Shown one piece after another: positions 1 through 18,644 of a DNA stretch of 18,644 bases. Location: positions 1-18,644 of IMG/VR virus record IMGVR_UViG_2627853678_000002. One strand, written 5' to 3'. The position numbers were made by a program, and so were the translations under genes. The notes under the pieces are model-generated. The model saw only the letters and a program-made list of their open reading frames with translations, had not been told where the DNA came from and made no database searches. The first letter of the stretch is position 1. Each line of letters starts with the position of its first letter. This DNA comes from a virus (taxonomy: Duplodnaviria > Heunggongvirae > Uroviricota > Caudoviricetes).

Positions 1-2
1 CG

Positions 3-320
3 ATGTTATTCAGCGATCTGTTCAAATGTTATTACCCGATCTCGAGGAAGTTATTGAGTGATCTCCATTTCATGAAAATACGCACCAGTGACAGCTTTCA
101 GTTTATTCTCCACGAGAAAAAGAGAGCGGAAAGCGGTAAAAACGCCGGTCAGGAGTGGCTGGCGGTGGTTGGTTATTACCCGAAATTAAGCCAGCTCGTT
201 TCCGGCCTGATGCATCACGATATTCTGACCGGAAGCGCAAAGTCTTTTGCTGATTTAAACGCGCAGGTTGAGCAACTCAGCAAGCGTTGTTCAGAGGCTT
301 TTGGCTCATATGGCCGTTAA
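3..320 (+). CDS. hypothetical protein upstream of the replication gene (position of P2 orf80-83); true start uncertain
   Basis: 105-codon ORF ending 11 nt into gene A; no motif recognised; product not identified. Confidence 0.3.
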   Translation: MLFSDLFKCYYPISRKLLSDLHFMKIRTSDSFQFILHEKKRAESGKNAGQEWLAVVGYYPKLSQLVSGLMHHDILTGSAKSFADLNAQVEQLSKRCSEAFGSYGR

Positions 321-2580: not shown

Positions 2581-2635
2581 GATTGTGATAAAAAGTAAAT
2601 AATTAATATAATGCAATTGCTTGACTGTTTTAAAA

Positions 2636-2666
2636 GGGACAACGTAGTTGTGAACTATATTGTCCC
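2636..2666. terminator. possible bidirectional hairpin between the convergent 3' ends of gene A and the 351-aa gene
   Basis: Inverted repeat GGGACAA (2636-2642) / TTGTCCC (2660-2666) in AT-rich DNA; on the minus strand it is followed by TTTTAAAA. Stem is short and the loop long, so support is weak. Confidence 0.3.
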
Positions 2667-2673
2667 GGGAGTA

Positions 2674-3729
2674 TTAATTTTTAAATATGGATTGTATGTA
2701 TTCTATAGTGCTATCTTTAGCTCTGATGTCTTTTAAAGTGTTATTTATGAAATCTATTATTCTGTCATTACTTAATAGTGGCGATAACGCATAACATGTT
2801 GTTGTGAATGTCATGACGTCACTAAAGCTTAGTGAAACACCTTTTGTCGCAGCGTTCTCAATCGCAAGAGACTCATCAATATCTAAGTTTGTTGCTCTTG
2901 GCCCTTTAAGGAAGATAACTTTTGAAATCCCGGATGCAGATGCTTTTGAAACGGCGTGATTAACATCTTGATAATTAAATGGTTTGTCTTTCACTTCTAT
3001 AGAAAGGAAAACTATATCATCATGATATACATCTATGTCCAGTATCTCTTTTGAGGAGCTACCGGCCTGATTGACGGGATGTGCTTTTATTATCCATCCT
3101 CTTTGTTCACCTAATAAATGTAACGAAATTGCGGCAGCAATCGCGCATGTTTCTCCATCACAAGGATGAGATATAATATTATAAATAATCTTATGGAAAT
3201 CAAAATTAATTGAGTTCGGCGTTATAACTCTATTGGTTCGCTGTAGGGTAAAATATAATGCAATAACAAGCATTTCATAAGCTAAGGTTTGGGTTGTTGC
3301 TGCATGTAATATATCAATTGAAAGTTGTTGTAAAACCTTATCATTTCCTCTGCGCACAGGGTTATCAGAGGAGTGGAGCATGTAACGAGCTGGTTTATTT
3401 AGAAATGGCTCATTTGATGCGCCTAACTTACCCTCTAAAAATGGGCCTTCTACTTTGCCTACTATTACCGAATGACATAAACTTCTTGCATCATAGGCTC
3501 CGTCTACGGGGGCATTAGCTTGTAAAGCCAGAGGGTTTACTCTAGGGTCTGTTGCTTTTGCAAGTAAACCAGTAATAAGTATATATCTGTATGTAAGGTG
3601 GGTGCCTAAAATTACATTTTGAATGGAGACCCATTGATTATTTGTTTTGTAATCAGTTAATTTTTTTGCATCGTTGATTGCATTTATAATTACATTATAG
3701 GCTTGCTCATGATTTACTAATACTTTCAT
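2674..3729 (-). CDS. uncharacterised 351-aa protein; putative PD-(D/E)xK-type nuclease, candidate restriction/defence effector
   Basis: 351-codon ORF in AT-rich DNA with AAGGA 7-11 nt upstream of the ATG; its start overlaps the 3' end of the upstream HTH gene by 23 nt. Candidate motif ILDIDVYHDD-IVFLSIEVK (D238...E245-x-K247, about nt 2989-3018). No Walker A motif seen. Confidence 0.5.
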   Translation of the reverse strand: MKVLVNHEQAYNVIINAINDAKKLTDYKTNNQWVSIQNVILGTHLTYRYILITGLLAKATDPRVNPLALQANAPVDGAYDARSLCHSVIVGKVEGPFLEGKLGASNEPFLNKPARYMLHSSDNPVRRGNDKVLQQLSIDILHAATTQTLAYEMLVIALYFTLQRTNRVITPNSINFDFHKIIYNIISHPCDGETCAIAAAISLHLLGEQRGWIIKAHPVNQAGSSSKEILDIDVYHDDIVFLSIEVKDKPFNYQDVNHAVSKASASGISKVIFLKGPRATNLDIDESLAIENAATKGVSLSFSDVMTFTTTCYALSPLLSNDRIIDFINNTLKDIRAKDSTIEYIQSIFKN

Positions 3730-4021
3730 AGGTGTCCTTTAGTAAGATATCCATTGGTAGACCTAATCGGCTTGCAACCACCTCTAATAATTCAAATAGT
3801 TCTAAAGCATCTAATCGCCTTTCAAAGCTTTCGATTTTAGATATATCTGATTGTGATAATCCTAGAAAAATGGCCAATTCTGACTGCGAAAGAGAAGCTT
3901 CTTTGCGTAGTTTGGTGAGAAGCTGGACTAGGCACCTGTATCTATGATCATGTATAGTTGGTTGTCGTTTTGCCATGTGGTTTAGAAGGTGATTGATTGT
4001 GTGTCGATCCTTACCTATCAT
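3707..4021 (-). CDS. small helix-turn-helix (XRE-like) transcriptional regulator; candidate controller (C) protein
   Basis: HTH-like segment ASLSQSELAIFLGLSQSDISKIE; sits directly upstream of and overlapping the 351-aa gene and divergent from the methyltransferase. Start ambiguous: ATG at 4021 (104 aa) or ATG at 3976 (89 aa); neither has a clear SD. Confidence 0.7.
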   Translation of the reverse strand: MIGKDRHTINHLLNHMAKRQPTIHDHRYRCLVQLLTKLRKEASLSQSELAIFLGLSQSDISKIESFERRLDALELFELLEVVASRLGLPMDILLKDTYESISKS

Positions 4022-5151
4022 TGGTTTTATTCCAAAATCGAATAATTGGTGCTAAAGAAGTGAACAAAATTTCAGCGGTGAGCTTATTTACTGGGGCAGG
4101 AGGGATGGATGTCGGTTTCTCTAATGCCGGGTTCCGAACAGTTTGGGCCAATGATATAGATAAGGATGCATGTGATACATTTAAGCTTAATCATGAATCA
4201 CCTGTTTTTTGTGGTGATATTGATGAGATGCTAAGTGAATTGTCTGGGCTGAAAAATATAGGTTGTGTTTTTGGTGGGCCTCCATGCCAAGGATTTTCTG
4301 TGGCAGGGAAAATGGACGCTCATGATCCACGTAGTAAGCTGGTTATGTCATTCATGCGGGCGGTGGATATAATTCAACCAGAATGCTTTGTTATGGAGAA
4401 TGTTAAGGCTTTAGCACAGTTGTCCAAATTTGAACCAGTTAGGTGTGAACTGTTTAAGATGGCTGAAAAGTCAGGCTATCGTTCAGCCTTGCTGGTGCTG
4501 AATTCTAAAGATTTTGGCGTTCCTCAGAATAGGGAACGTATGTTTTTTATAGGGTTTCGTTCCGAAAATGATGTGAAACGAGTTGAGGCAGCGATAAAAA
4601 AATACCAATATCTTTCGCCAACAGTTGGTGAGATTATTCGGCCTTTAGGGCGAGCGGGTAATCCAAACAATTCAAGAGTCTGTAATGCAAGGATTACAAA
4701 TGCTGCTAAGCCAGTATTACGGAAGTCACCTTACGCGGGAATGATGTTTAACGGGCAGGGAAGACCAATTAACCCGAATGGGTATGCTTCAACTATAGCT
4801 GCTTCTATGGGGGGGAATAGGACACCAATTATTGATGAAGAACACCTTTATGATGGCTCAACAAGTTATGTTGAGACTTATCATAATCATCTAATGAATG
4901 GTGGTGAGCCAAAAGATATGCACGATGTACCTAGTCGTTTACGTCGACTAACGATAGATGAGGCTCTTTTGATTCAAACATTCCCGAGTAATTATGTCTT
5001 TGTGGGGAAAAATTCGTCAATTTGGCGTCAGATAGGGAATGCTGTGCCTTGTAAATTGGCGCAGGCTGTTGCTGCAGGGGTTTTGGATGTCCTTACTGGT
5101 AAAACTATTAATGTTCAAAAGAGTCAAACAGAGTTGAGTTTGAATTCGTAA
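3997..5151 (+). CDS. DNA (cytosine-5)-methyltransferase
   Basis: Canonical C5-MTase motifs in order: I LFTGAGGMDVGF, IV GGPPCQGFS (Cys codon at 4285-4287), VI FVMENV, VIII QNRERMFFIGF, then a variable region and X RQIGNAVP. The 3997 start is TTG preceded by AGAAGGTGA; an in-frame GTG at 4060 is an alternative. Confidence 0.9.
   Translation: MCVDPYLSLVLFQNRIIGAKEVNKISAVSLFTGAGGMDVGFSNAGFRTVWANDIDKDACDTFKLNHESPVFCGDIDEMLSELSGLKNIGCVFGGPPCQGFSVAGKMDAHDPRSKLVMSFMRAVDIIQPECFVMENVKALAQLSKFEPVRCELFKMAEKSGYRSALLVLNSKDFGVPQNRERMFFIGFRSENDVKRVEAAIKKYQYLSPTVGEIIRPLGRAGNPNNSRVCNARITNAAKPVLRKSPYAGMMFNGQGRPINPNGYASTIAASMGGNRTPIIDEEHLYDGSTSYVETYHNHLMNGGEPKDMHDVPSRLRRLTIDEALLIQTFPSNYVFVGKNSSIWRQIGNAVPCKLAQAVAAGVLDVLTGKTINVQKSQTELSLNS
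4027..4045. promoter_or_regulatory. palindromic operator-like element in the divergent control region
   Basis: Perfect inverted repeat TTATTC-N7-GAATAA, read directly from the sequence, between or overlapping the 5' ends of the HTH gene and the methyltransferase gene. Confidence 0.3.
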
Positions 5152-5307
5152 AACGGATCACATTTTCAAACCGATGGATGCAGAATTTAACATTGCTGCA
5201 TGAGTTTGCATCTTGAAATCATAAGCTGTACTGCTTGGCTTGACCAGAATTGATGTGGGTAAGAAGTGGTTATGCACCCGCATTAAAACCGCCCCATTAA
5301 GCGGGCG

Positions 5308-5326
5308 GGCGAGGCGGGGAAAGCAC
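5308..5326. other. cos: cos site (19-nt cohesive-end sequence of P2-type phages)
   Basis: GGCGAGGCGGGGAAAGCAC matches my recollection of the P2 cohesive end and lies where expected, between the right-end cargo and the 3' end of Q. Confidence 0.6.
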
Positions 5327-5468
5327 TGCGCGCTGGCGGTGGTGCTGATTTTATTTTTTCAGCGTCTGAGCGCGTCGTGAAGGCGTTTACTTGGCCTGCC
5401 AGGGCGTCGGTGTGTCTGCGGGCTGTTTTGCGCGGTGGTGAGCGTGTGAGGGCGTGATGGCAGGTTGT

Positions 5469-5490
5469 AAAAAAGCCGCCCGCAGGCGGC
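5469..5490 (-). terminator. rho-independent terminator downstream of the portal gene
   Basis: On the minus strand, GC-rich hairpin GCCGCC-TGCG-GGCGGC followed by TTTTTT, immediately after the Q stop at 5496. Confidence 0.55.
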
Positions 5491-5495
5491 GATGT

Positions 5496-6529
5496 TCAGT
5501 CGTTGTCAGTGTCCAGTGAGTAGTTTTTAAAGCGGATGACCTCCTGACCGAGCCAGCCGTTTATTTCCCGAATCCTGTCCTGTAACGGGATTAGCTCATT
5601 GCGGACAAAGACCTTTGCCACTTTCTCAATATCGCCCAGTGACCCGACGTTCTCCGGCTTGCCACCCATCAACTGAAAGGGGATGCGGTGTGCGTCCAGC
5701 AGGTCAGCGGCGCTGGCTTTTTTGATATTAAAAAAATCGTCCTTCGTCGCCACTTCACTGAGCGGGATAATTTTAATGCCGTCGGCTTTCCCCTGCGGGG
5801 CATAGAGAAACAGGTTTTTAAAGTTGTTGCGGCCTTTTGACTTCACCATGTTTTCGCGAAGCATTTCGATATCGTTGCGATCCTGCACGGCATCGGTAAC
5901 GTACATGATGTATCCGGCATGTGCGCCGTTTTCGTAATACTTGCGGCGGAACAGCGTGGCCGACTCATTCAGCCAGGCAGAGTTAAGGGCGCTGAGATAT
6001 TCCGGCAGACCGTACAGCTCCTGATTAATATCCGGCTCCAGCAGGTGAAACACGGAGCCGGGCGCGAAAGGTGTCGGCTCGTTAAAGGACGGCACCCACC
6101 AGTAAACATCCTCTTCCACACCACGGCGGGTATATTTTGCCGGTGAGGTTTCCAGCCTGATAACTTTACCGGTGGTGCTGTAACGCTTTTCCAGAAACGC
6201 ATTACCGAACACCAGAAAATCCAGCACAAAGCGGCTGAAATCCTGCTGAGAAAGCCACGGATGCGGGATAAATGTCGAGGCCAGAATATTGCGTTTAACG
6301 TAAATCGGCGAGCTGTGATGCACGGCAGCACGCAGGCTTTTTGCCAGACCGGTAAAGCTGACCGGCGGCTCATACCATCTGCCGTTACTGATGCACTCGA
6401 CGTAATCCAGAATGTCACGGCGGTCGAGTACCGGCACCGGCTCACCAAAGGTGAATGCTCCATTTTCGGGGCGCTGGCGGTCATTGTTTTTGCCACAGGT
6501 TGCGGTGTTTTCCCTTTTTTCTTGCTCAT
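5496..6529 (-). CDS. Q: portal protein gpQ, interrupted by an apparent 1-nt frameshift near 6457-6460
   Basis: Two minus-strand ORFs in different frames (5969..6529 starting MSKKKGKTPQ, and 5496..6437) together span 344 codons, the length of P2 gpQ. The first starts in a TGATG overlap with the terminase stop. Frame switches between ...APKME and AFTFGEPVPVLDRR. Confidence 0.8.
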
Positions 6530-8301
6530 CAGTAAAACTCCAGAATGGTGGATGTCAGCGGGGTGCTGATACCGGCGGTGAGTGGCTCATTTAACAGGGC
6601 GTGCATGGTCGCCCAGGCGAGGTCGGCGTGGCTGGCTTCCTCGCTGCGGCTGGCCTCATAGGTGGCGCTGCGTCCGCTGCTGGTCATGGTCTTGCGGATA
6701 GCCATAAACGAGCTGGTGATGTCGGTGGCGCTGACGTCGTATTCCAGACAGCCACGGCGGATAACGTCTTTTGCCTTGAGCACCATTGCGGTTTTCATTT
6801 CCGGCGTGTAGCGGATGTCGCGCGCGGCAGGATAGAACGAGCGCACGAGCTGGAACACGCCGACACCGAGGCCGGTGGCATCAATACCGATGTATTCGAC
6901 GTTGTATTTTTCGGTGAGTTTGCGGATGGATTCCGCCTGGGTGGCAAAGTCCATGCCTTTCCACTGGTGACGCTCAAGTATTCTGAATTTGCCACCGGCA
7001 ACCACCGGCGGTGCCAGTACCACGCATCCGGCGCTGTCGCCACGGTGTGACGGGTCGTAACCAATCCAGACCGGGCGTGAGCCGAACGGATTGGCGGCAA
7101 ACGGCGCATAGTCTTCCCATTCTTCCAGCGTGTCGACCATGCAGCGTTGCAACTCCTCGAACGGGAACACCGACGCCTTGTCGTCAACAAATTCACACAT
7201 GAACAGGTTTTTAAAATCGTCGGCGCTGTTTTCGCGTTTGAGCTGCTCAATGTCGAACAGCGTGCAGCCGCCTTTCAGGGCGTCCTCAATGGTGACAATC
7301 TGCCGCCACTGGCCGTCCGCACAGAGAAGACCTCCGGCAAGTGCGTTATGACTGACGTCGATTTCCACGCGTTCAGCGGCGCTGGCGCGTCCCCGGTTAA
7401 ACAGTTCACCCGACCAGAACGGGTAGGCGTCGTGCGCCAGCGTGGACGGGGTGGAGAAATAGGTCGAACGCAGGTGACTCTGTGAGGCCATACCTGATGC
7501 CACCTTACGCAGTACCTGAAAATTCGGGATCCAGAAAATCTCATCGACGTACAGGTCGCCGTTATGGCTCTGCGCGGTGTTGGAGTTGGTGCCGAGAAAA
7601 ATCAGTTTTGCGCCGTTATTGCCCAGGACAATCGGGTCACCGGTCAGGTCAACGTCAACCAGACGGGCAAAGGCGATGATGTATTCGCGGAACACATACG
7701 CCTGCGTTTTACTGGCCGACAGAAAAATCTGGTTATGGCCGGTTTTCAGGGCGCGCAGCAGCGCCTCGCGGGAAAAATAAAACGTTGCGCCAATCTGGCG
7801 GGATTTCAGGATATCGCGGATGCGGTGCTCAAGCCCGGCGCGATACCAGTGCAACTGATATTCGAAAGACTGCTCAAAGAAAATCTGCTCCAGCTTTTCG
7901 ATGGCTTCGTCGCTGAAAAAATTCTTTTTCGGTTTGCGGCGCCCGCCTTTGTTGCGGTTAGCGACGTTCGGATTAAGGTCTGCCTCGTTGCCGGTCTGAC
8001 TGTAGCGGTTGACCCGCGCCAGCCGTTCAATCTGGCGTCCCAGCAGGTCAATTTCCTTGAAGTCACCGCCGGTTTTCTGCGGTTTGATGATGAGCTGGGT
8101 CAGCCGCGCTTCCAGACTCATTTCGACACGGCTGATGGGGGCAACGCTGTCCCAGCCGTCGCGCTGTTTCCAGCTCTGCACCGTCGGGCGTTTCATCTGC
8201 AACATGGCGGCAATCTGCGGCACGGAAAACCCCTGCCAGTACAGCAGCGCCGCCTGACGACGCGGGTCGTGTAAAAGAGTGGTGTCTGTGGTGATGGTCA
8301 T
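6529..8301 (-). CDS. P: terminase large (ATPase) subunit gpP
   Basis: 600-codon ORF; ATG at 8301 with GAGG upstream gives 590 aa (MTITTDTTLL...), the size of P2 gpP; it is followed directly by the portal gene as in P2. Confidence 0.9.
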   Translation of the reverse strand: MTITTDTTLLHDPRRQAALLYWQGFSVPQIAAMLQMKRPTVQSWKQRDGWDSVAPISRVEMSLEARLTQLIIKPQKTGGDFKEIDLLGRQIERLARVNRYSQTGNEADLNPNVANRNKGGRRKPKKNFFSDEAIEKLEQIFFEQSFEYQLHWYRAGLEHRIRDILKSRQIGATFYFSREALLRALKTGHNQIFLSASKTQAYVFREYIIAFARLVDVDLTGDPIVLGNNGAKLIFLGTNSNTAQSHNGDLYVDEIFWIPNFQVLRKVASGMASQSHLRSTYFSTPSTLAHDAYPFWSGELFNRGRASAAERVEIDVSHNALAGGLLCADGQWRQIVTIEDALKGGCTLFDIEQLKRENSADDFKNLFMCEFVDDKASVFPFEELQRCMVDTLEEWEDYAPFAANPFGSRPVWIGYDPSHRGDSAGCVVLAPPVVAGGKFRILERHQWKGMDFATQAESIRKLTEKYNVEYIGIDATGLGVGVFQLVRSFYPAARDIRYTPEMKTAMVLKAKDVIRRGCLEYDVSATDITSSFMAIRKTMTSSGRSATYEASRSEEASHADLAWATMHALLNEPLTAGISTPLTSTILEFY

Positions 8302-8474
8302 GAATACCTCGCCGTGATGAATACACGGCAAGGCTACTGAGTCGCGCCCCGCGATTCGCTAAGGTGCTGTTGTGTCAGTGATAAGCCATCCGGGACTGAT
8401 GGCGGAGGATGCGTATCGTCGGGAAACTGATGCCGACATGTGACTCCTCTAATCACTATTCAGGACTCCTGACA
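8302..8474. promoter_or_regulatory. divergent control region between P/Q (minus) and the O-N-M-L operon (plus); presumed late promoters
   Basis: 173-bp non-coding gap between divergent starts; contains dyad GTGA-N9-TCAC at about 8440-8456. No exact TGT-N12-ACA element was found, so promoter positions are not assigned. Confidence 0.3.
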
Positions 8475-9329
8475 ATGGCAAAAAAAGTCTCAAAATTCTT
8501 TCGTATCGGCGTTGAGGGTGACACCTGTGACGGGCGTGTCATCAGTGCGCAGGATATTCAGGAAATGGCCGAAACCTTTGACCCGCGTGTCTATGGTTGC
8601 CGCATTAACCTGGAACATCTGCGCGGCATCCTGCCTGACGGTATTTTTAAACGTTATGGCGATGTGGCAGAACTGAAGGCCGAAAAGATTGACGATGATT
8701 CGGCGCTGAAAGGCAAATGGGCGCTGTTTGCGAAAATCACCCCGACCGATGACCTTATCGCGATGAACAAGGCCGCGCAGAAGGTCTACACCTCAATGGA
8801 AATTCAGCCGAACTTTGCCAACACCGGCAAATGTTATCTGGTGGGGCTGGCCGTCACCGATGACCCGGCAAGCCTCGGTACGGAATACCTGGAATTCTGC
8901 CGCACGGCAAAACACAACCCTCTGAACCGCTTCAAATTAAGCCCTGAAAACCTGATTTCAGTGGCAACGCCCGTTGAGCTGGAATTTGAAGACCTGCCTG
9001 AAACCGTGTTCACCGCCCTGACCGAAAAGGTGAAATCCATTTTTGGCCGCAAACAGGCCAGCGATGACGCCCGTCTGAATGACGTGCATGAAGCGGTGAC
9101 CGCTGTTGCTGAACATGTGCAGGAAAAACTGAGCGCCACTGAGCAGCGCCTCGCTGAGATGGAAACTGCCTTTTCCGCTCTTAAGCAGGAGGTGACTGAC
9201 AGGGCGGATGAAACCAGCCAGGCATTCAGCCGCCTGAAAAACAGTCTCGACAACACCGAAAGTCTGACCCAGCAGCGCCGCAGCAAGGCCACCGGCGGTG
9301 GCGGTGACGCCCTGATGACGAACTGCTGA
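8475..9329 (+). CDS. O: capsid scaffolding protein gpO
   Basis: Translation from MAKKVSKFFRIGVEGDTCDGR is 284 aa and matches the remembered P2 gpO; AGGA lies 9-12 nt upstream of ATG 8475. The ORF-track start at 8409 is judged a spurious upstream extension. Confidence 0.9.
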   Translation: MAKKVSKFFRIGVEGDTCDGRVISAQDIQEMAETFDPRVYGCRINLEHLRGILPDGIFKRYGDVAELKAEKIDDDSALKGKWALFAKITPTDDLIAMNKAAQKVYTSMEIQPNFANTGKCYLVGLAVTDDPASLGTEYLEFCRTAKHNPLNRFKLSPENLISVATPVELEFEDLPETVFTALTEKVKSIFGRKQASDDARLNDVHEAVTAVAEHVQEKLSATEQRLAEMETAFSALKQEVTDRADETSQAFSRLKNSLDNTESLTQQRRSKATGGGGDALMTNC

Positions 9330-9387
9330 CCGGCGTCAGCCAGTCCGGGAAAACCTTCACGATTAACCCTTAATTTCAGGAAAAACT

Positions 9388-10460
9388 ATGCGCCAGGAAA
9401 CCCGCTTTAAATTTAATGCCTACCTGTCCCGTGTTGCCGAACTGAACGGCATCGACGCCGGTGATGTGTCGAAAAAATTCACCGTTGAACCGTCGGTCAC
9501 CCAGACCCTGATGAACACCATGCAGGAGTCCTCTGACTTTCTGACCCGCATCAACATTGTGCCGGTCAGCGAAATGAAAGGGGAAAAAATTGGTATTGGT
9601 GTCACCGGCTCCATCGCCAGCACCACCGACACCGCCGGTGGCACCGAGCGTCAGCCGAAGGACTTCTCGAAGCTGGCGTCCAGTAAGTACGAATGCGACC
9701 AGATTAACTTCGATTTTTATATCCGCTACAAAACGCTGGACCTGTGGGCGCGTTATCAGGATTTCCAGCTCCGTATCCGTAACGCCATTATCAAACGCCA
9801 GTCCCTTGATTTCATCATGGCCGGTTTTAACGGCGTGAAGCGTGCCGAAACCTCTGACCGCAACAGCAATCCGATGTTGCAGGATGTGGCGGTCGGCTGG
9901 CTGCAGAAATACCGCAATGAAGCCCCGGCGCGCGTGATGAGCAAGGTCACTGACGAGGAAGGCCGCACCACCTCTGAGGTTATCCGCGTGGGTAAGGGCG
10001 GTGATTATGCCAGCTTGATGCACTGGTGATGGATGCGACCAACAACCTGATTGAGCCGTGGTATCAGGAAGACCCTGACCTTGTGGTGATTGTGGGGCGT
10101 CAGTTACTGGCGGACAAGTATTTCCCCATCGTTAACAAGGAGCAGGACAACAGCGAAATGCTGGCCGCTGACGTCATCATCAGCCAGAAACGCATCGGTA
10201 ACCTGCCGGCGGTACGCGTCCCGTACTTCCCGGCGGATGCGATGCTCATCACGAAGCTGGAAAACCTGTCCATCTACTACATGGATGACAGTCATCGCCG
10301 CGTGATTGAGGAAAACCCGAAACTTGACCGCGTGGAGAACTACGAGTCAATGAACATTGATTACGTGGTGGAAGACTACGCCGCCGGTTGTCTGGTGGAA
10401 AAAATTAAGGTCGGTGATTTCTCCACACTGGCTAAAGCGACCGCAGAGCCGGGAGCGTAA
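9388..10460 (+). CDS. N: major capsid protein gpN, interrupted by an apparent 1-nt frameshift near 10015-10019
   Basis: ORFs 9388..10029 (MRQETRFKFNAYLSRV...GGDYASL) and 10026..10460 (MDATNNLIEPWYQ...AEPGA) are adjacent frames of one capsid gene; the second frame reads LDALVMDATNN upstream of its listed start. Confidence 0.85.
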
Positions 10461-10463
10461 CCG

Positions 10464-11207
10464 ATGACGAGTCCCGCACAGCGCCACATGATGCGGGTCT
10501 CGGCAGCGATGACCGCGCAGCGGGAAGCCGCCCCGCTGCGACATGCAACTGTCTATGAGCAGATGCTGGTTAAGCTCGCCGCAGACCAGCGCACACTGAA
10601 AGCGATTTATTCAAAAGAGCTGAAGGCCGCGAAAAAACGCGAACTGCTGCCGTTCTGGTTGCCGTGGGTGAACGGCGTGCTGGAGCAGGGCAAAGGTGCA
10701 CAGGATGACATTCTGATGACGGTCATGCTGTGGCGTCTGGATACCGGCGATATTGCCGGTGCGCTGGAGATTGCCCGTTACGCCCTGAAGTACGGCCTGA
10801 CCATGCCGGGTAAACACCGCCGCACCCCGCCGTACATGTTCACCGAGGAGGTGGCGCTCGCGGCCATGCGCGCTCACGCTGCCGGTGAGTCTGTGGATCC
10901 CCGCCTGCTGACGGACACCCTCGAACTGACCGCCACGGCTGACATGCCTGATGAAGTGCGCGCAAAGCTGCACAAAATCACCGGTCTGTTTCTGCGTGAC
11001 GCTGGTGATGCCGCAGGTGCGCTGGCGCACCTGCAACGTGCGACACAGCTCGACTGTCAGGCAGGCGTCAAAAAAGAGATTGAACGACTGGAGCGGGAGC
11101 TGAAACCGAAGCCGGAGCCGCAGCCCAAAGCGGCCACCCGCGCCCCGCGTAAGACCCGGAGCGTGACACCGGCAAAACGTGGACGCCCGAAAAAGAAAGC
11201 CAGTTAA
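10464..11207 (+). CDS. M: terminase small subunit gpM
   Basis: 247-aa ORF in the gpM position and size; basic Lys/Pro-rich C-terminal tail. Confidence 0.85.
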   Translation: MTSPAQRHMMRVSAAMTAQREAAPLRHATVYEQMLVKLAADQRTLKAIYSKELKAAKKRELLPFWLPWVNGVLEQGKGAQDDILMTVMLWRLDTGDIAGALEIARYALKYGLTMPGKHRRTPPYMFTEEVALAAMRAHAAGESVDPRLLTDTLELTATADMPDEVRAKLHKITGLFLRDAGDAAGALAHLQRATQLDCQAGVKKEIERLERELKPKPEPQPKAATRAPRKTRSVTPAKRGRPKKKAS

Positions 11208-11306
11208 CAACCGAATGCGCCCCGCGCCAGGGCGGCACGCCGGTCAGTGAGGGTGAATCACCTGACGCTGTACCGGCGTCCACCGCCCGACTTTTCAGAG
11301 GTAGTC

Positions 11307-11816
11307 ATGATGACGCTGATTATTCCGCGAAAGGAGGCTCCCGTGTCCGGTGAGGGTACGGTGGTCATCCCGCAACCGGCAGGCGACGAGCCGGTGATTA
11401 AAAACACGTTCTTTTTTCCCGATATCGACCCGAAGCGCGTCCGGGAACGTATGCGACTTGAGCAGACCGTCGCCCCCGCCCGTCTGCGTGAGGCCATCAA
11501 GTCAGGCATGGCGGAGACGAATGCGGAGCTGTACGAGTACCGCGAACAGAAAATTGCTGCCGGTTTTACGCGTCTGGCGGACGTTCCGGCGGACGACATC
11601 GACGGTGAAAGTATCAAAGTTTTTTACTACGAGCGCGCCGTGTGTGCGATGGCGACCGCGTCGCTTTATGAGCGTTATCGCGGCGTGGATGCCAGTGCGA
11701 AAGGGGACAAGAAGGCCGACAGCATTGACAGCACCATTGATGAGTTGTGGCGGGATATGCGCTGGGCAGTGGCGCGCATCCAGGACAAGCCGCGCTGCAT
11801 CGTGAGTCAAATCTGA
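11307..11816 (+). CDS. L: head completion/stabilisation protein gpL
   Basis: Start at ATG 11307 (MMTLIIPRKEAP, GAGG upstream) gives 169 aa as in P2 gpL; the stop overlaps the X start. Confidence 0.8.
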   Translation: MMTLIIPRKEAPVSGEGTVVIPQPAGDEPVIKNTFFFPDIDPKRVRERMRLEQTVAPARLREAIKSGMAETNAELYEYREQKIAAGFTRLADVPADDIDGESIKVFYYERAVCAMATASLYERYRGVDASAKGDKKADSIDSTIDELWRDMRWAVARIQDKPRCIVSQI

Positions 11817-12019
11817 TGAAGACCTTTGCGCTACAGGGCGACACGCTCGACGCCATTTGTGTCCGGTATTACGGGCGCACTGAGGGCGTGGTCGAGGCCG
11901 TGCTCGCCGCAAATCCGGGACTGGCTGAACTGGGTGCGGTGCTGCCGCACGGCACCGCCGTCGAACTGCCCGACGTTCAGACCGCGCCCGTGGCTGAAAC
12001 TGTCAATCTGTGGGAGTAA
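11816..12019 (+). CDS. X: tail protein X
   Basis: 67-aa product from ATG 11816 (MKTFALQGDTLDAICVRYYG...), the size and position of P2 gpX. Confidence 0.75.
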   Translation: MKTFALQGDTLDAICVRYYGRTEGVVEAVLAANPGLAELGAVLPHGTAVELPDVQTAPVAETVNLWE

Positions 12020-12022
12020 CGC

Positions 12023-12304
12023 ATGACAGCAGAAGAAAAAAGCGTCCTGTCGCTTTTCATGATTGGGGTGCTGATTGTTGTCGGCAAGGTGCTTGCCGGT
12101 GGTGAATCCATCACCCCGCGTCTGTTTATCGGGCGCATGTTACTCGGTGGTTTTGTCTCGATGGTTGCCGGTGTTGTTCTGGTGCAGTTTCCTGACCTGT
12201 CACTGCCTGCGGTGTGCGGCATCGGCTCCATGCTGGGTATCGCCGGTTATCAGGTGATTGAGATTGCCATTCAGCGCCGCTTTAAGGGCAGGGGGAAACC
12301 GTAA
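12023..12304 (+). CDS. Y: holin gpY
   Basis: 93-aa protein with hydrophobic transmembrane segments and a charged C-terminus (RRFKGRGKP); first gene of the lysis cassette. Confidence 0.8.
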   Translation: MTAEEKSVLSLFMIGVLIVVGKVLAGGESITPRLFIGRMLLGGFVSMVAGVVLVQFPDLSLPAVCGIGSMLGIAGYQVIEIAIQRRFKGRGKP

Positions 12305-12801
12305 TGCCGGTTATTAACACGCATCAGAATATCGCCGCCTTTCTCGACATGCTGGCCGTGTCCGAAGGGACGGCAAACCATCCGCTGACGAAAAACCGGG
12401 GCTATGACGTGATAGTCACCGGACTGGACGGGAAGCCGGAAATTTTCACCGACTACAGTGACCACCCGTTCGCACATGGCCGACCGGCGAAGGTGTTTAA
12501 CCGTCGCGGTGAAAAATCCACGGCCTCCGGTCGCTATCAGCAGCTTTACCTGTTCTGGCCGCATTACCGCAAACAGCTTGCCCTGCCGGATTTCAGTCCG
12601 TTGTCACAGGACAGACTTGCCATTCAGTTGATCCGCGAACGCGGTGCACTGGATGACATCCGGGCGGGACGCATTGAGCGCGCCATTTCACGCTGTCGCA
12701 ATATCTGGGCGTCCCTGCCGGGTGCCGGTTACGGTCAGCGTGAGCATTCACTGGAAAAACTGGTCACCGTCTGGCGTACCGCTGGCGGCGTACCGGCTTA
12801 A
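12304..12801 (+). CDS. K: endolysin gpK
   Basis: 165-aa ORF starting in a TAATG overlap with the Y stop; position and length match P2 gpK. Confidence 0.85.
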   Translation: MPVINTHQNIAAFLDMLAVSEGTANHPLTKNRGYDVIVTGLDGKPEIFTDYSDHPFAHGRPAKVFNRRGEKSTASGRYQQLYLFWPHYRKQLALPDFSPLSQDRLAIQLIRERGALDDIRAGRIERAISRCRNIWASLPGAGYGQREHSLEKLVTVWRTAGGVPA

Positions 12802-12815
12802 ACGGAGTAAACACC

Positions 12816-13241
12816 ATGAAGAAATTATCCCTTTCACTGATGCTGAACGTGTCGCTGGCGCTGATGCTGGCACTGTCCCTGATTTACCCGCAGAGCGTGG
12901 CCGTCAGTTTTGTCGCTGTCTGGGCGATTCTGGCGACGGTTATCTGTGTGGTTGCCGGTGGTGTCGGCGTGTATGCCACAGAGTATGTACTGGAACGCTA
13001 CGGGCGGGAGCTGCCGCCGGAATCGCTGGCCGTGAAGATTGTCGCATCGCTGTTTTTGCAGCCGGTGCCGTGGCGCAGACGGGCAGTGGCTCTGGTGGTG
13101 ATGGTGACGACGTTTATCTCGCTGGTCGCTGCCGGGTGGATTTTTACCGCGCTGATTTATCTCGTGGCGTCGCTGTTCTTCCGGCTGATACGTACGGCCT
13201 GCCGTCAGCGTTTTGAGGGGCGGGAACCATGTCAAAGCTGA
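12816..13241 (+). CDS. lysA: lysis accessory membrane protein LysA
   Basis: 141-aa strongly hydrophobic protein following K, as in P2. Confidence 0.7.
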   Translation: MKKLSLSLMLNVSLALMLALSLIYPQSVAVSFVAVWAILATVICVVAGGVGVYATEYVLERYGRELPPESLAVKIVASLFLQPVPWRRRAVALVVMVTTFISLVAAGWIFTALIYLVASLFFRLIRTACRQRFEGREPCQS

Positions 13242-13654
13242 TGACTGTGCTGGTCGTGTTGTTATCGCTGGCGGTGGCGGGGCTGTTTCTGGCGAAGCAT
13301 GAAAACGCCAGCCTGCGCGCCTCGCTGGACAGGGCGAACAACGTCGCCAGTGAACAGCAGACGACCATCACCATGCTGAAAAACCAGCTTCATGTTGCAC
13401 TCACCAGGGCAGATAAAAACGAGCTGGCGCAGGTGGCACTGCGTCAGGAACTGGAAAACGCCGCGAAGCGTGAAGCACAGCGCGAGAAAACCATCACGAG
13501 GTTACTTAATGAAAACGAAGATTTTCGCCGCTGGTACGGTGCTGACCTGCCTGATGCTGTGCGCCGGTTGCACCAGCGCCCGGCCTGCGCCGACGCCAGT
13601 GATTGTCCACAACGCCTGCCCGAAAGTGAGTCTTTGCCCGATGCCGGGCAGTGA
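13229..13654 (+). CDS. lysB: LysB, Rz-like inner-membrane spanin
   Basis: 141 aa with an N-terminal transmembrane segment and a coiled-coil-like periplasmic region. Confidence 0.75.
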   Translation: MSKLMTVLVVLLSLAVAGLFLAKHENASLRASLDRANNVASEQQTTITMLKNQLHVALTRADKNELAQVALRQELENAAKREAQREKTITRLLNENEDFRRWYGADLPDAVRRLHQRPACADASDCPQRLPESESLPDAGQ

Positions 13655-13799
13655 CCCGGAGACGAACGGCGATTTAAGTGCCGATATCCGGCAGCTTGAG
13701 AACGCGCTGGCACGCTGTGCCAGCCAGGTAAAAATGATTAAACACTGTCAGGATGAAAACTATGCTCAAACCCGACAGCCTGCGCAGGGCGCTGACTGA
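13509..13799 (+). CDS. lysC: LysC, Rz1-like outer-membrane lipoprotein spanin, nested in the +1 frame of lysB
   Basis: 96-aa product from ATG 13509 with signal peptide and lipobox LMLCAGC; embedded in and extending past lysB. Confidence 0.7.
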   Translation: MKTKIFAAGTVLTCLMLCAGCTSARPAPTPVIVHNACPKVSLCPMPGSDPETNGDLSADIRQLENALARCASQVKMIKHCQDENYAQTRQPAQGAD

Positions 13800-14229
13800 T
13801 GCCGTCACGGTGCTGAAAACCAGTCCCGAGATGCTGCGGATATTCGTGGATAACGGGAGTATTGCCTCCACACTGGCGACGTCGTTGTCATTCGAAAAGC
13901 GTTACACGCTCAATGTCATTGTGACCGACTTTACCGGTGATTTTGACCTGCTCATTGTGCCGGTGCTGGCGTGGCTGCGGGAAAATCAGCCCGACATCAT
14001 GACCACCGACGCAGGCCAGAAAAAGGGCTTCACATTTTATGCAGACATCAACAATGACAGCAGCTTTGATATCAGTATCAGCCTGATGCTGACCGAGCGC
14101 ACGCTGGTCAGTGAGGTGGACGGCGCGCTGCATGTGAAGAATATCCCGGAACCTCCGCCGCCGGAGCCGGTCACCCGCCCGATGGAGCTGTATATCAATG
14201 GCGAACTGGTGAGCAAGTGGGATGAATGA
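13762..14229 (+). CDS. R: tail completion protein gpR
   Basis: 155 aa from ATG 13762 (MLKPDSLRRALTDAV...); an in-frame ATG at 13753 is an alternative start. Confidence 0.8.
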   Translation: MLKPDSLRRALTDAVTVLKTSPEMLRIFVDNGSIASTLATSLSFEKRYTLNVIVTDFTGDFDLLIVPVLAWLRENQPDIMTTDAGQKKGFTFYADINNDSSFDISISLMLTERTLVSEVDGALHVKNIPEPPPPEPVTRPMELYINGELVSKWDE

Positions 14230-14680
14230 GTTTAAGCGTTTTGAAGACCGGCTGACCGGACTGATTGAATCGCTGTCACCGTCAGGGCGTCGGCGACTGG
14301 CGGTAGATATTGCGAAGAAGCTGCGCCAGCGCCAGCAGCAGCGAATTAAATTACAAAAAGCCCCGGATGGTACGCCGTATGTACCGAGAAAAAACCAACC
14401 AGTACGAAATAAGAAAGGCCGGATAAAGCGGGAAATGTTTGTGAAATTACGCACTAACCGGTTTATGAAAGCAACAGGTAGCGAGAGTGCGGCGGTGGTG
14501 GCGTTTGCCAGCGGAGTACAACGAATTGCGCGAGTACATCAATTAGGGCTTAGGGATAAGCCGGGGCGTAATAGTGCTGTGGTGGAATATCCTGTTCGCG
14601 AGTTATTTGGTTTTGACAAGGAATCTATACAATTGATAGAAAGGGAGTTATTAGTGATTCTATCGAAAGATGTTATATGA
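14222..14680 (+). CDS. S: tail completion protein gpS (3' third is more AT-rich, possibly mosaic)
   Basis: 152 aa beginning MNEFKRFEDRLTGLIESLSP in the gpS position; its stop overlaps the next start in ATGA. Confidence 0.8.
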   Translation: MNEFKRFEDRLTGLIESLSPSGRRRLAVDIAKKLRQRQQQRIKLQKAPDGTPYVPRKNQPVRNKKGRIKREMFVKLRTNRFMKATGSESAAVVAFASGVQRIARVHQLGLRDKPGRNSAVVEYPVRELFGFDKESIQLIERELLVILSKDVI

Positions 14681-14973
14681 GACGGGTGTTTGTGGATAAA
14701 AAGTTTTCCATTTTGAGAAAAAGAGTAAAGCATTCTCAAAAGAAAGTTATGGATTGTATTATTGCTGACCATAATGCTGATATATGTGTGTTATGCGGGA
14801 GTTCTGACGATATTACTCGTGAGCACATTATTCCTCAGTGGGCCTTTGAGTCAAATGCTGAAAAATCTTTAATTAATAAAAAGAATAATCAGTCAACTCA
14901 TTACATTAAAGCCACTGTACCAGCATGCAGAGTGTGCAATTCTGATTTGCTGGGAGTGTTTGAGTATACCTGA
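14677..14973 (+). CDS. small HNH-endonuclease-like protein (cargo in the S-V variable locus)
   Basis: 98-aa ORF in AT-rich DNA with an HNH/His-Me-finger-like pattern: CVLC ... REHIIPQW ... NKKNN ... H ... CRVCN. Confidence 0.6.
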   Translation: MRRVFVDKKFSILRKRVKHSQKKVMDCIIADHNADICVLCGSSDDITREHIIPQWAFESNAEKSLINKKNNQSTHYIKATVPACRVCNSDLLGVFEYT

Positions 14974-15041
14974 AGAAATTTCTTACGGAAAAGAGGGGAG
15001 AGGAGTTAACAGATTATGAGTATGATTGCATCATATGGTGG

Positions 15042-15431
15042 TTGCAATACATGGGTTTTAAGTTGCAATTAATGGATTTGCGGAACCGCTTTCTCAGGTA
15101 TAAAGGTGGTGATTATATCCCGTTCCTTGCAAACTTTCCGGTTGCAATGTTTTGGGGGAATGTCGATACGACGCCGGGGGATGTCTTCAGGATTATACGA
15201 AAATCGCGACGCAATCTGATGTCGAAATGGAAGGATAAAAAACATAATTCTTTGATGGTTTTTGAAACATCAAACAAGAGTTTTCATTTCTTTCATAAGG
15301 TTGATGAATTTATTTTTATTGAAATGCCTCAGGTTAAGAAGGCGTTTTTCTTCTTTTTTAATAAAGAATTTGACAGCCATGATTTAGCTCATGAGGAGTG
15401 TATGAAGATTATAGAGAAGTGCTACAACTAA
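15042..15431 (+). CDS. hypothetical protein (cargo in the S-V variable locus)
   Basis: 129-codon ORF in AT-rich DNA, where an open frame of this length is unlikely by chance; the listed start is TTG and ATG at 15051 (GGTGG upstream) is more likely. No motif recognised. Confidence 0.5.
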   Translation: MQYMGFKLQLMDLRNRFLRYKGGDYIPFLANFPVAMFWGNVDTTPGDVFRIIRKSRRNLMSKWKDKKHNSLMVFETSNKSFHFFHKVDEFIFIEMPQVKKAFFFFFNKEFDSHDLAHEECMKIIEKCYN

Positions 15432-15508
15432 TATTTATTATGTTGTATCACAGCTGACAGAATCCTCCATGATTGCTGCTGGTATCGTCCAGCGGCATCC
15501 TTCCCGTT

Positions 15509-16143
15509 ATGAACACTCTCGCAAATATTCAGGAACTCGCGCGCGCACTGCGCAATATGATTCGCACCGGCATTATCGTCGAAACCGACCTTAACGCCGG
15601 TCGCTGCCGTGTGCAGACCGGCGGCATGTGCACCGACTGGTTGCAGTGGCTGACTCATCGTGCTGGGCGTTCGCGCACATGGTGGGCACCTTCCGTGGGG
15701 GAACAGGTGCTGATTCTGTCCGTGGGCGGCGAACTCGACACGGCGTTTGTTCTGCCGGGGATTTATTCCGGCGATAACCCTGCGCCGTCTGCGTCGGCGG
15801 ATGCCCTGCATATCCGTTTCCCTGACGGGGCGGTGATTGAGTATGAACCCGAAACCAGTGCACTCACGGTAAGCGGAATTAAAACGGCCAGCGTGACGGC
15901 TTCTGATTCTGTTACTGCCACGGTGCCGGTGGTCATGGTGAAAGCATCAACCGCGTCACTCTGGACACGCCGGAGGTGGTCTGCACAAACAGGCTGATCA
16001 CCGGCACGCTGGAAGTGCAGAAGGGCGGGACGATGCGCGGCAACATTGAACACACCGGCGGTGAACTCTCATCAAACGGGAAGGTACTGCATACCCATAA
16101 ACACCCCGGCGACAGCGGCGGCACAACCGGGAGTCCTCTATGA
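15509..16143 (+). CDS. V: baseplate assembly/spike protein gpV, interrupted by an apparent 1-nt frameshift near 15951-15953
   Basis: Translation from ATG 15509 (MNTLANIQELARALRNMIRTG...) matches the remembered P2 gpV; the frame terminates at 15997, while the adjacent frame continues RVTLDTPEVVCTNRLITGTLEVQKGG...GSPL to a stop overlapping the W start. Confidence 0.8.
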
Positions 16144-16487
16144 CAGCGCGTTATCTCGGAATGAATCGCAGTGATGGCCTGACTGTCTCTGACCTTGAGC
16201 ATATCAGCCAGAGTATCGGCGATATCCTGCGCACGCCGGTCGGCTCACGGGTGATGCGTCGTGATTACGGCTCGTTGCTGGCGTCAATGATTGACCAACC
16301 GCAGACCCCGGCGCTTGAGTTGCAGATTAAGGTCGCCTGTTACATGGCGGTGCTGAAATGGGAACCCCGCGTCACCCTGTCATCCGTCACTACGGCGCGC
16401 AGTTTTGACGGGCGAATGACGGTCACGTTAACCGGCCAGCACAACGACACCGGCCAGCCACTTTCGTTAACCATCCCTGTGAGTTGA
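16140..16487 (+). CDS. W: baseplate wedge protein gpW
   Basis: 115-aa ORF in the gpW position and size. Confidence 0.85.
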   Translation: MTARYLGMNRSDGLTVSDLEHISQSIGDILRTPVGSRVMRRDYGSLLASMIDQPQTPALELQIKVACYMAVLKWEPRVTLSSVTTARSFDGRMTVTLTGQHNDTGQPLSLTIPVS

Positions 16488-16491
16488 AACC

Positions 16492-17400
16492 ATGCCGATT
16501 ATCGACCTGAACCAGCTACCCGCACCGGATGTGGTCGAGGAGCTGGACTTTGAAACCATTCTCGCTGAACGCAAGGCGACACTGATTTCCCTTTACCCGG
16601 AAGACCAGCAGGAGGCGGTCGCCCGTACCCTGACGCTGGAATCCGAGCCTCTCGTCAAACTGCTGGAGGAAAATGCTTATCGTGAGCTTATCTGGCGTCA
16701 GCGTGTGAATGAGGCCGCACGGGCGGTGATGCTGGCCTGTGCCGCCGGTAATGACCTTGATGTTATTGGTGCCAATTACAACACCACGCGCCTGATTATC
16801 ACCCCGGCAGATGATTCGACCATCCCGCCGACACCGGCAGTAATGGAATCTGACACGGATTATCGTCTGCGTATTCAGCAGGCGTTTGAAGGTTTAAGCG
16901 TCGCCGGGTCGGTGGGTGCCTATCAGTATCATGGCCGCAGTGCTGACGGGCGTGTCGCGGATATCTCTGTCACCAGTCCGTCTCCGGCCTGTGTCACCAT
17001 CTCTGTGCTGTCACGTGAAAATAACGGTGTCGCTTCCGAAGACTTGCTGGCGGTGGTGCGTAACGCCCTTAATGGCGAGGACGTCAGGCCGGTGGCCGAC
17101 CGCGTGACCGTGCAGTCTGCCGCCATTGTTGAATATCAGATAAACGCCACGCTTTACCTTTACCCTGGTCCCGAAAGCGAACCCATCCGCGCTGCTGCCG
17201 TGAAAAAACTGGAAGCGTATATCACGGCACAGCACCGGCTGGGGCGCGACATCCGTCTGTCTGCCATTTATGCCGCTTTGCATGTGGAGGGCGTGCAGCG
17301 TGTCGAGCTGGCCGCACCACTGGCCGACATCGTGCTCAACAGTACGCAGGCGTCTTTCTGTACCGAATACCGCGTCGTGACCGGAGGCTCGGATGAGTGA
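16492..17400 (+). CDS. J: baseplate protein gpJ
   Basis: 302-aa ORF in the gpJ position and size. Confidence 0.85.
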   Translation: MPIIDLNQLPAPDVVEELDFETILAERKATLISLYPEDQQEAVARTLTLESEPLVKLLEENAYRELIWRQRVNEAARAVMLACAAGNDLDVIGANYNTTRLIITPADDSTIPPTPAVMESDTDYRLRIQQAFEGLSVAGSVGAYQYHGRSADGRVADISVTSPSPACVTISVLSRENNGVASEDLLAVVRNALNGEDVRPVADRVTVQSAAIVEYQINATLYLYPGPESEPIRAAAVKKLEAYITAQHRLGRDIRLSAIYAALHVEGVQRVELAAPLADIVLNSTQASFCTEYRVVTGGSDE

Positions 17401-18004
17401 TTCGCGCCTGCTGCCGACCGGCTCATCACCGCTTGAAATTGCTGCCGCGAAAGCCTGTGCGGAAATTGAAAAAACGCCGGTCAGTATTCGTGAGCTGTGG
17501 AACCCGGACACCTGCCCGGCAAATCTGCTGCCGTGGCTGGCGTGGGCCTTTTCGGTCGACAGGTGGGATGAAAAGTGGCCGGAAGCGACAAAACGCGCCG
17601 TTATCCGCGATGCCTATTTCATCCACTGTCATAAGGGTACTGTCGGCGCAATCCGGCGTGTTGTGGAGCCGCTCGGCTATCTGATTGAAGTGAGGGAGTG
17701 GTGGCAGCTCAACGAGGAGCCGGGGACGTTCCGTATCGTTGTTGGCGTGCTTGAGCAGGGTATTACCGAAGAAATGTATCTGGAGCTGGAACGTCTCGTT
17801 GCTGATGCAAAACCGGCGAGCCGCCATCTGACGGGACTGGCTATCAGTTTAAGTACAACCGGCAACATTTTTGCCGGAACGGGATGCTATCACGGTGACG
17901 CCCTGATGGTTTATCCCTACACCCCGGAGGCCATTATTGTCGGAGGGGATTATTTCCCGGCCTCGGTCATTCATTTAATTGATAACCTGAGAGTAAACGC
18001 ATGA
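17393..18004 (+). CDS. I: baseplate/tail protein gpI
   Basis: 203-aa ORF whose N-terminal part (MSDSRLLPTGSSPLE...) matches the remembered P2 gpI; the C-terminus is longer and different. Confidence 0.8.
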   Translation: MSDSRLLPTGSSPLEIAAAKACAEIEKTPVSIRELWNPDTCPANLLPWLAWAFSVDRWDEKWPEATKRAVIRDAYFIHCHKGTVGAIRRVVEPLGYLIEVREWWQLNEEPGTFRIVVGVLEQGITEEMYLELERLVADAKPASRHLTGLAISLSTTGNIFAGTGCYHGDALMVYPYTPEAIIVGGDYFPASVIHLIDNLRVNA

Positions 18005-18644
18005 CAGTGAAATACTACGCCATTCTGACTAATCAGGGCGCAGCACGACTGGCTAACGCGACGATGCTCGGCAGTAAGCTGAATCTGACGCAAATGGCCG
18101 TTGGTGATGCGAATGGTGTATTACCGACACCAGACCCGGCACAGACAAAACTGATTAACCAGAAACGCATTGCACCGCTGAATCTTCTGAGTGTTGACCC
18201 TAACAATCAGAGCCAGATTATTGCGGAGCAAATTATCCCTGAAAACGAGGGAGGATTCTGGATCCGTGAGATTGGGCTTTATGATGATGAAGGCGTACTC
18301 ATTGCGGTGGCGAACTGCCCGGAAACGTACAAACCGCAGTTGCAGGAAGGCAGTGGTCGTACCCAGACTATCCGCATGATTCTGGTTGTCTCGAATACCG
18401 AAGCCATCACGCTGAAAATCGACCCGTCGGTGGTACTGGCGACCCGTAAATATGTGGATGACAAAATCTCAGAACACGAACAGTCACGACGACACCCGGA
18501 TGCATCGCTGACCGCAAAAGGTTTTACTCAGTTAAGCAGCGCAACCAACAGCACGTCTGAAACACTGGCCGCAACGCTGAGAGCGGTAAAGGTCGCGTAT
18601 GATCTTGCTAACGGGAAATATACTGCACAGGACGCGACCACAGC
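18001..18644 (+). CDS. H: tail fibre protein gpH, N-terminal part (runs off the window end)
   Basis: Open frame from ATG 18001 (ATGA overlap with the I stop) to the window end, translated by hand: MTVKYYAILTNQGAARLANAT...EHEQSRRHPDASLTAKGFTQLSSATNSTSETLAAT, tail-fibre-like. Not in the ORF track because it has no stop. Confidence 0.8.
   Translation, partial: MTVKYYAILTNQGAARLANATMLGSKLNLTQMAVGDANGVLPTPDPAQTKLINQKRIAPLNLLSVDPNNQSQIIAEQIIPENEGGFWIREIGLYDDEGVLIAVANCPETYKPQLQEGSGRTQTIRMILVVSNTEAITLKIDPSVVLATRKYVDDKISEHEQSRRHPDASLTAKGFTQLSSATNSTSETLAATLRAVKVAYDLANGKYTAQDATT

Follow-up and report, generated by a model that had tools for sequence, protein, structure and literature searches.

The frame break in the baseplate spike gene V of a P2-like Escherichia coli prophage is probably a sequencing error

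In phage P2, the tail chaperone E/E' is produced with a programmed -1 frameshift at a conserved slippery sequence, and this arrangement is conserved across relatives. The central spike of the P2 baseplate is gpV, for which structures of the full-length protein (PDB 3QR8) and of the C-terminal domain (3QR7 and 3AQJ) are on record. Interrupted genes can also originate from the sequencing itself. The frameshifts that Ion Torrent homopolymer errors leave in assemblies have been documented (PMC12046094). Such errors do not recur across independent sequencings of one isolate, and they favour longer runs, with a mean of 5.5 nt when runs of at least 3 nt are counted (PMC12046094).

The stretch of DNA analyzed here, referred to as the window, has a length of 18,644 nucleotides and corresponds to contig JXRF01000142.1 (18,644 bp) of assembly GCA_000832005.1, with 100% identity over the 5,252 bases compared. 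It is a segment of a P2-like (Peduovirus) prophage, genes A through H, on the + strand. The source of JXRF01 is an Indian well-water isolate of E. coli (PMC4384488). The isolate was sequenced on the Ion Proton platform with singleton reads at 101x coverage, and the reads were assembled de novo in CLC Workbench into 453 contigs (PMC4384488). The annotation contains 5,305 RAST CDS per 4.9 Mb (PMC4384488); this high number is explainable by split genes, as with Ion Torrent frameshift artefacts.

Within the P2 late tail operon, gene V is in its usual place ahead of W, J, I, and H, and it overlaps W; the order S-(cargo)-V-W-J-I-H in the window matches that of P2. The features discussed below are collected in Table 1. 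The V frame that opens with the ATG at 15509 encodes 162 aa, ends with VKASTASLWTRRRWSAQTG, and is closed by the stop codon at 15995-15997. Translation of the adjacent frame gives RVTLDTPEVVCTNRLITGTLEV at its start and HTHKHPGDSGGTTGSPL at its end, before the TGA at 16141-16143. The 63 final codons of V sit in this adjacent frame, which overlaps the W ATG at 16140, and they code for most of the trimeric spike domain and for the HTHKH apex. According to the first-pass annotation, the V frame ends at 15997, and the adjacent frame continues to a stop that overlaps the start of W; the translations agree with both coordinates. It was also proposed there that one C had been lost at 15951-15953. Alignment with phage R18C and a P2 relative confirms this: the window shows a single gap column, which falls in the C run of AAC-CCG-CGT, a run that is CCC in both of the others and CC in the window. 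The sequence of the CC allele across the site is AACCGCGTC. When one C is restored, V becomes an open reading frame of 636 nt and 211 aa that is identical to the annotated V protein of E. coli MS 124-1, and the 63 codons downstream of the site are unchanged.

Table 1. Coordinates of the IS end, the four interrupted genes, and gene W in the window
Feature	Position	Strand	Description
Left terminal 84 nt of ISEc12 (IS21-like)	1..84		Two indels; abuts the DUF5405 early gene
Portal gene Q	5496..6529	-	Base missing at 6458 (CC to C, + strand), about codon 24
Major capsid gene N	9388..10460	+	C missing at 10014 (CC to C)
Cargo gene between S and V	14677..15431	+	A missing at 14968 (AA to A) splits the gene
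Gene V as deposited	15509..15997	+	148 correct codons, 14 out-of-frame codons (ASLWTRRRWSAQTG), premature stop; translation
Lesion site in V	15951..15952	+	CC versus CCC in every relative; one base short; alignments
3' part of V, codons 149-211 (RVTLD...GSPL, stop)	15952..16143	+	-1 frame; translation
Gene W (GPW/gp25 baseplate wedge)	16140..16487	+	Intact; ATG overlaps the true V stop (ATGA)

The consequences of the break for the protein are visible in the Pfam matches. The OB domain PF04717 is found at residues 19-86 (E = 7e-21) in both deposited and repaired V. Repaired V also contains Phage_spike (PF18715) at residues 138-190 (E = 3.8e-28) and, at residues 193-210, a weak match to Apex (E = 0.0016) that is below Pfam's cut-off. 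In the deposited 162-aa protein, the same search returns PF04717 and neither PF18715 nor Apex. Compared with full-length P2 gpV (3QR8), repaired V aligns from residues 1-211 on 1-211 (E = 3.6e-137). The two proteins differ at 5 residues, all of them upstream of the break, and they are the same over residues 149-211, including the HTHKHPGD apex. Unlike P2 gpV, the deposited frame is broken at codon 149, and the apex and the greater part of the spike domain are missing from its product, a difference that is attributed here to sequencing error. A real break would cost the protein its trimeric needle and its histidine apex, and the loss of these parts should abolish the assembly of a P2 baseplate.

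The nearest complete relative allows the break to be seen in the context of the whole prophage segment. Positions 84-18644 of the window (18.56 kb) align with the chromosome of E. coli MS 124-1 with 99.968% identity and six differences. Four of these are one-base deletions (6458, 10014, 14968, and 15951), each of which shortens a run of 2-3 nt, and the other two are T/C substitutions at 12107 and 18578. Judging from this alignment, four gene-breaking run contractions against two substitutions do not look like ordinary divergence. MS 124-1 was considered as the window's own strain and rejected; it is the nearest complete relative only. E24377A is a classic reference strain of ETEC. In the genome announcement, the Indian well-water isolate bears this name, 'E24377A' (PMC4384488), whereas the nearest complete-genome match of the prophage contig is MS 124-1 (99.97%). 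The strain label may be a best-hit assignment.

The broken form of V was found nowhere else in the collections that were searched. Among the 19 other related loci compared, V has 211 or 223 aa in all but one, which is cut by a contig end. In IMG/VR, there is no exact match for the CC allele and its flanking sequence, against at least 120 for the CCC allele. With a 75-nt query across the V site, matches were obtained in 951 complete E. coli genome records. None of them reached 100%; the best were 75/76, with the extra base. Exact-product look-ups in the protein collection returned no match for truncated V (from the 162-aa and the 174-aa starts), for the truncated cargo frame (98 aa), or for the frame that fuses the IS end to DUF5405 (105 aa), so these broken products are shared by no other assembly. 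A related prophage in GCA_902810185.1 (1279-4081 and 17198-18375) has its portal, terminase, and sheath genes each in pieces. It is likely to be another error-laden assembly and not a decaying prophage.

Three further genes of the window are interrupted in a similar way. The first-pass annotation had listed three lesions, in Q, N, and V, all at G or C runs of 2-3 nt. These three are indeed present in the deposited sequence, and their runs are as described, but the total is four, since the break in the cargo gene at 14968 had been left out, and this fourth one falls in an A run. The break at 10014 divides N of the window into products of 213 and 144 aa. The repaired cargo gene encodes 246 aa from the GTG at 14692 or 251 aa from the ATG at 14677, and it is intact in MS 124-1. 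It has a low GC content (~40%) and CxxC...CxxC motifs, is common in related prophages, and belongs to phrog_10503, a PHROG without an assigned function. PADLOC gave no match for it, and HNH_5 appeared only below the threshold. The gene presumably occupies the position of P2 orf30.

A second assembly, available in Logan for run SRR1765575, gives the most direct view of these sites. Contig SRR1765575_387 covers positions 13408-18534 of the window, differs from it only in having one more A at 14968 and one more C at 15951, and is 100% identical to finished MS 124-1. Consequently, its cargo gene is intact with 251 aa, and its V has 211 aa and again carries the spike domain and the histidine-rich apex in the same polypeptide. 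Contig SRR1765575_311 covers positions 4259-13382. In this contig, Q is intact with 344 aa and position 12107 is T as in the window, while the split in N is kept, with products of 213 and 143 aa; of the four lesions, no other is also present in the second assembly. When the whole collection was searched for the exact product, truncated N was on record in one contig only, SRR1765575_311. Because the N deletion, otherwise unique to the window, and the T at 12107 are shared, we infer that SRR1765575 derives from the same isolate as JXRF01, and it is very probably the read set behind that assembly. This link is based on the shared rare variants and on our judgement that the accession numbers look contemporaneous.

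The second assembly is itself not free of irregularities. In the holin gene, SRR1765575_311 has an indel together with a mismatch (7796-7797, which corresponds to 12053-12055 in the window), both of them absent from the window and from MS 124-1. Since the indel is private to this contig, the read set evidently gives indels that depend on the assembler. With the exception of the shared break in N, the indels of the two assemblies are located at different positions, and such assembly-specific positions fit noisy run-length calls and not fixed mutations.

It is therefore considered highly probable that the break in V is present in the deposited record and not in the organism, and that it is an error of the Ion Proton/CLC consensus. 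On the Ion Proton, the length of a run of identical bases is read from the size of a pH signal, and runs are often under-called. The CCC run in codons 148-149 of V would have been under-called by enough reads for CLC to write CC, and the reads at this site would be a mixture of both lengths. The true gene would then encode an intact P2-type central spike of 211 aa, with an N-terminal OB fold, a C-terminal trimeric spike, and a histidine-rich apex, and it would be translationally coupled to W through the ATGA overlap. The same process would account for the lesions at 6458 in Q and at 14968 in the cargo gene. The platform matches that of known Ion Torrent and Proton artefacts, each lesion changes the length of a run of identical bases by one, and most of the lesions in the window are not reproduced in the second assembly. 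Two features do not agree with the typical picture. The affected runs in the window are only 2-3 nt long, below the usual error-prone size; this is a mild oddity that leaves the verdict unchanged. The lesion in N (10014) is reproduced, which requires a systematic context error or a real mutation, and the N break may be either of these. Because it persists in the second assembly, the four lesions are not all equivalent. Of the two readings offered by the first-pass annotation, the one to which it leaned, systematic sequencing error, thus finds strong support in the platform, in the absence of the allele elsewhere, and in the second assembly, where V, Q, and the cargo gene are restored, although the N lesion survives there.

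The persistence of the N lesion also bears on the possibility that the break in V is a genuine mutation and that V is a pseudogene of a decaying, cryptic P2-like prophage. With N broken in both assemblies, at least one of the breaks may be genuine. Selection on the prophage may be relaxed, given the IS end at positions 1-84 and the IS-disrupted relative, so a pseudogene would not be implausible in principle. At the start of the contig, an ISEc12 end runs directly into an early gene, and in the nearest finished relative, ISEc12 sits in the tape-measure gene and beside cox, as would be expected in a degenerating lineage. The product of 162 aa would keep the OB domain without the spike and the apex and would yield no baseplate hub. 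Nevertheless, a genuine mutation in V is improbable, because V is intact in the second assembly, whose reads appear to come from the same isolate, and because the 63 downstream codons show no other change relative to MS 124-1. Against the nearest relative, four indels, all of them run contractions, stand beside two substitutions on an indel-prone platform, and the CC allele is absent from IMG/VR and from the 951 complete E. coli genome records. The first-pass annotation had held that the frameshifts, if real, make the prophage cryptic; for V, with an intact copy in the second assembly, this is unsupported. It is very improbable that the culture was a real mixture or that the strain carries two near-identical copies of the prophage, one with CC and one with CCC, from which the assemblers chose different alleles. 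The two assemblies do disagree at three sites, and many E. coli strains have at least two P2-like prophages (in up to four places per genome). However, such a mixture would demand three to four independent one-base run contractions without accompanying substitutions, and a 3-nt run is not slippage-prone. Moreover, the indel found only in Logan at 12053-12055 points to noisy reads and not to two alleles.

The two frames of V could also be imagined to be fused into one protein by programmed -1 ribosomal frameshifting. Their overlap spans ~90 nt (15907-15997), and nothing interrupts the downstream frame. The P2 E/E' chaperone is similar insofar as it belongs to the same phage family and consists of two overlapping frames; E/E' itself is located outside the window. 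Unlike in E/E', the overlap in V contains no slippery site: there is neither an X XXY YYZ heptamer nor a run of at least 4 bases in 15907-15997. In addition, the two-frame form is unique to this contig. In all relatives, V is one uninterrupted reading frame, with the extra C exactly at this site. With neither a slippery site nor a conserved two-frame arrangement, programmed frameshifting at V is effectively refuted, and its probability is negligible.

Although a consensus error is the preferred reading of the break in V, the prophage may have true defects of another kind, and any such defect more likely comes from the IS21-family element at the left contig end than from the frameshifts. The junction between the IS end and the DUF5405 early gene is exact, with the first ~13 codons of the gene missing at the contig end, and the matches of the other relatives to the window do not begin before base 84. 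In finished MS 124-1, there is no IS at DUF5405; one copy of ISEc12 interrupts the tape-measure gene there, and another is located beside cox. This difference in placement implies one of two events in the source strain, the insertion of an additional ISEc12 or a deletion next to the IS that removed ~1.8 kb from cox to DUF5405. The visible defects of the MS 124-1 prophage are likewise its two IS insertions and not frameshifts. If the break in N were genuine and the tail genes (V, W, J, I, sheath, and tube) were truly intact, this IS-marked prophage could be a head-less, tail-only remnant on its way to a tailocin-like particle, which would also be kept as a carrier of the restriction-modification system and of the phrog_10503 gene; this scenario is regarded as quite improbable.

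The restriction-modification system is found in an island of low GC content (37-44%) at 2674-5151, between the replication gene A and the portal gene Q. By the names in the MS 124-1 annotation, the island encodes a SacI-family restriction endonuclease, a small HTH controller, and a DNA cytosine methyltransferase. We take it to be the site at which P2-like phages carry variable cargo/defence genes. Between A and Q, other relatives have HATPase, SIR2, GmrSD, DUF4238, and AAA genes. At its other end, the window stops (18644) ~640 nt into the tail-fibre gene H, and five draft contigs of related prophages end near the same point of H. This common end point suggests that a repeat boundary lies where the conserved N-terminal part of H gives way to its variable C-terminal part.

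The spike gene itself is a textbook P2 gpV and nothing novel, and the importance of the break in V is that of a data-quality warning only. The window contains ~1 false frameshift per 5 kb, and by extrapolation, the same may hold for the whole JXRF01 assembly. At such a rate, a split gene in JXRF01 is no sound basis for calling a pseudogene, a cryptic prophage, or recoding.
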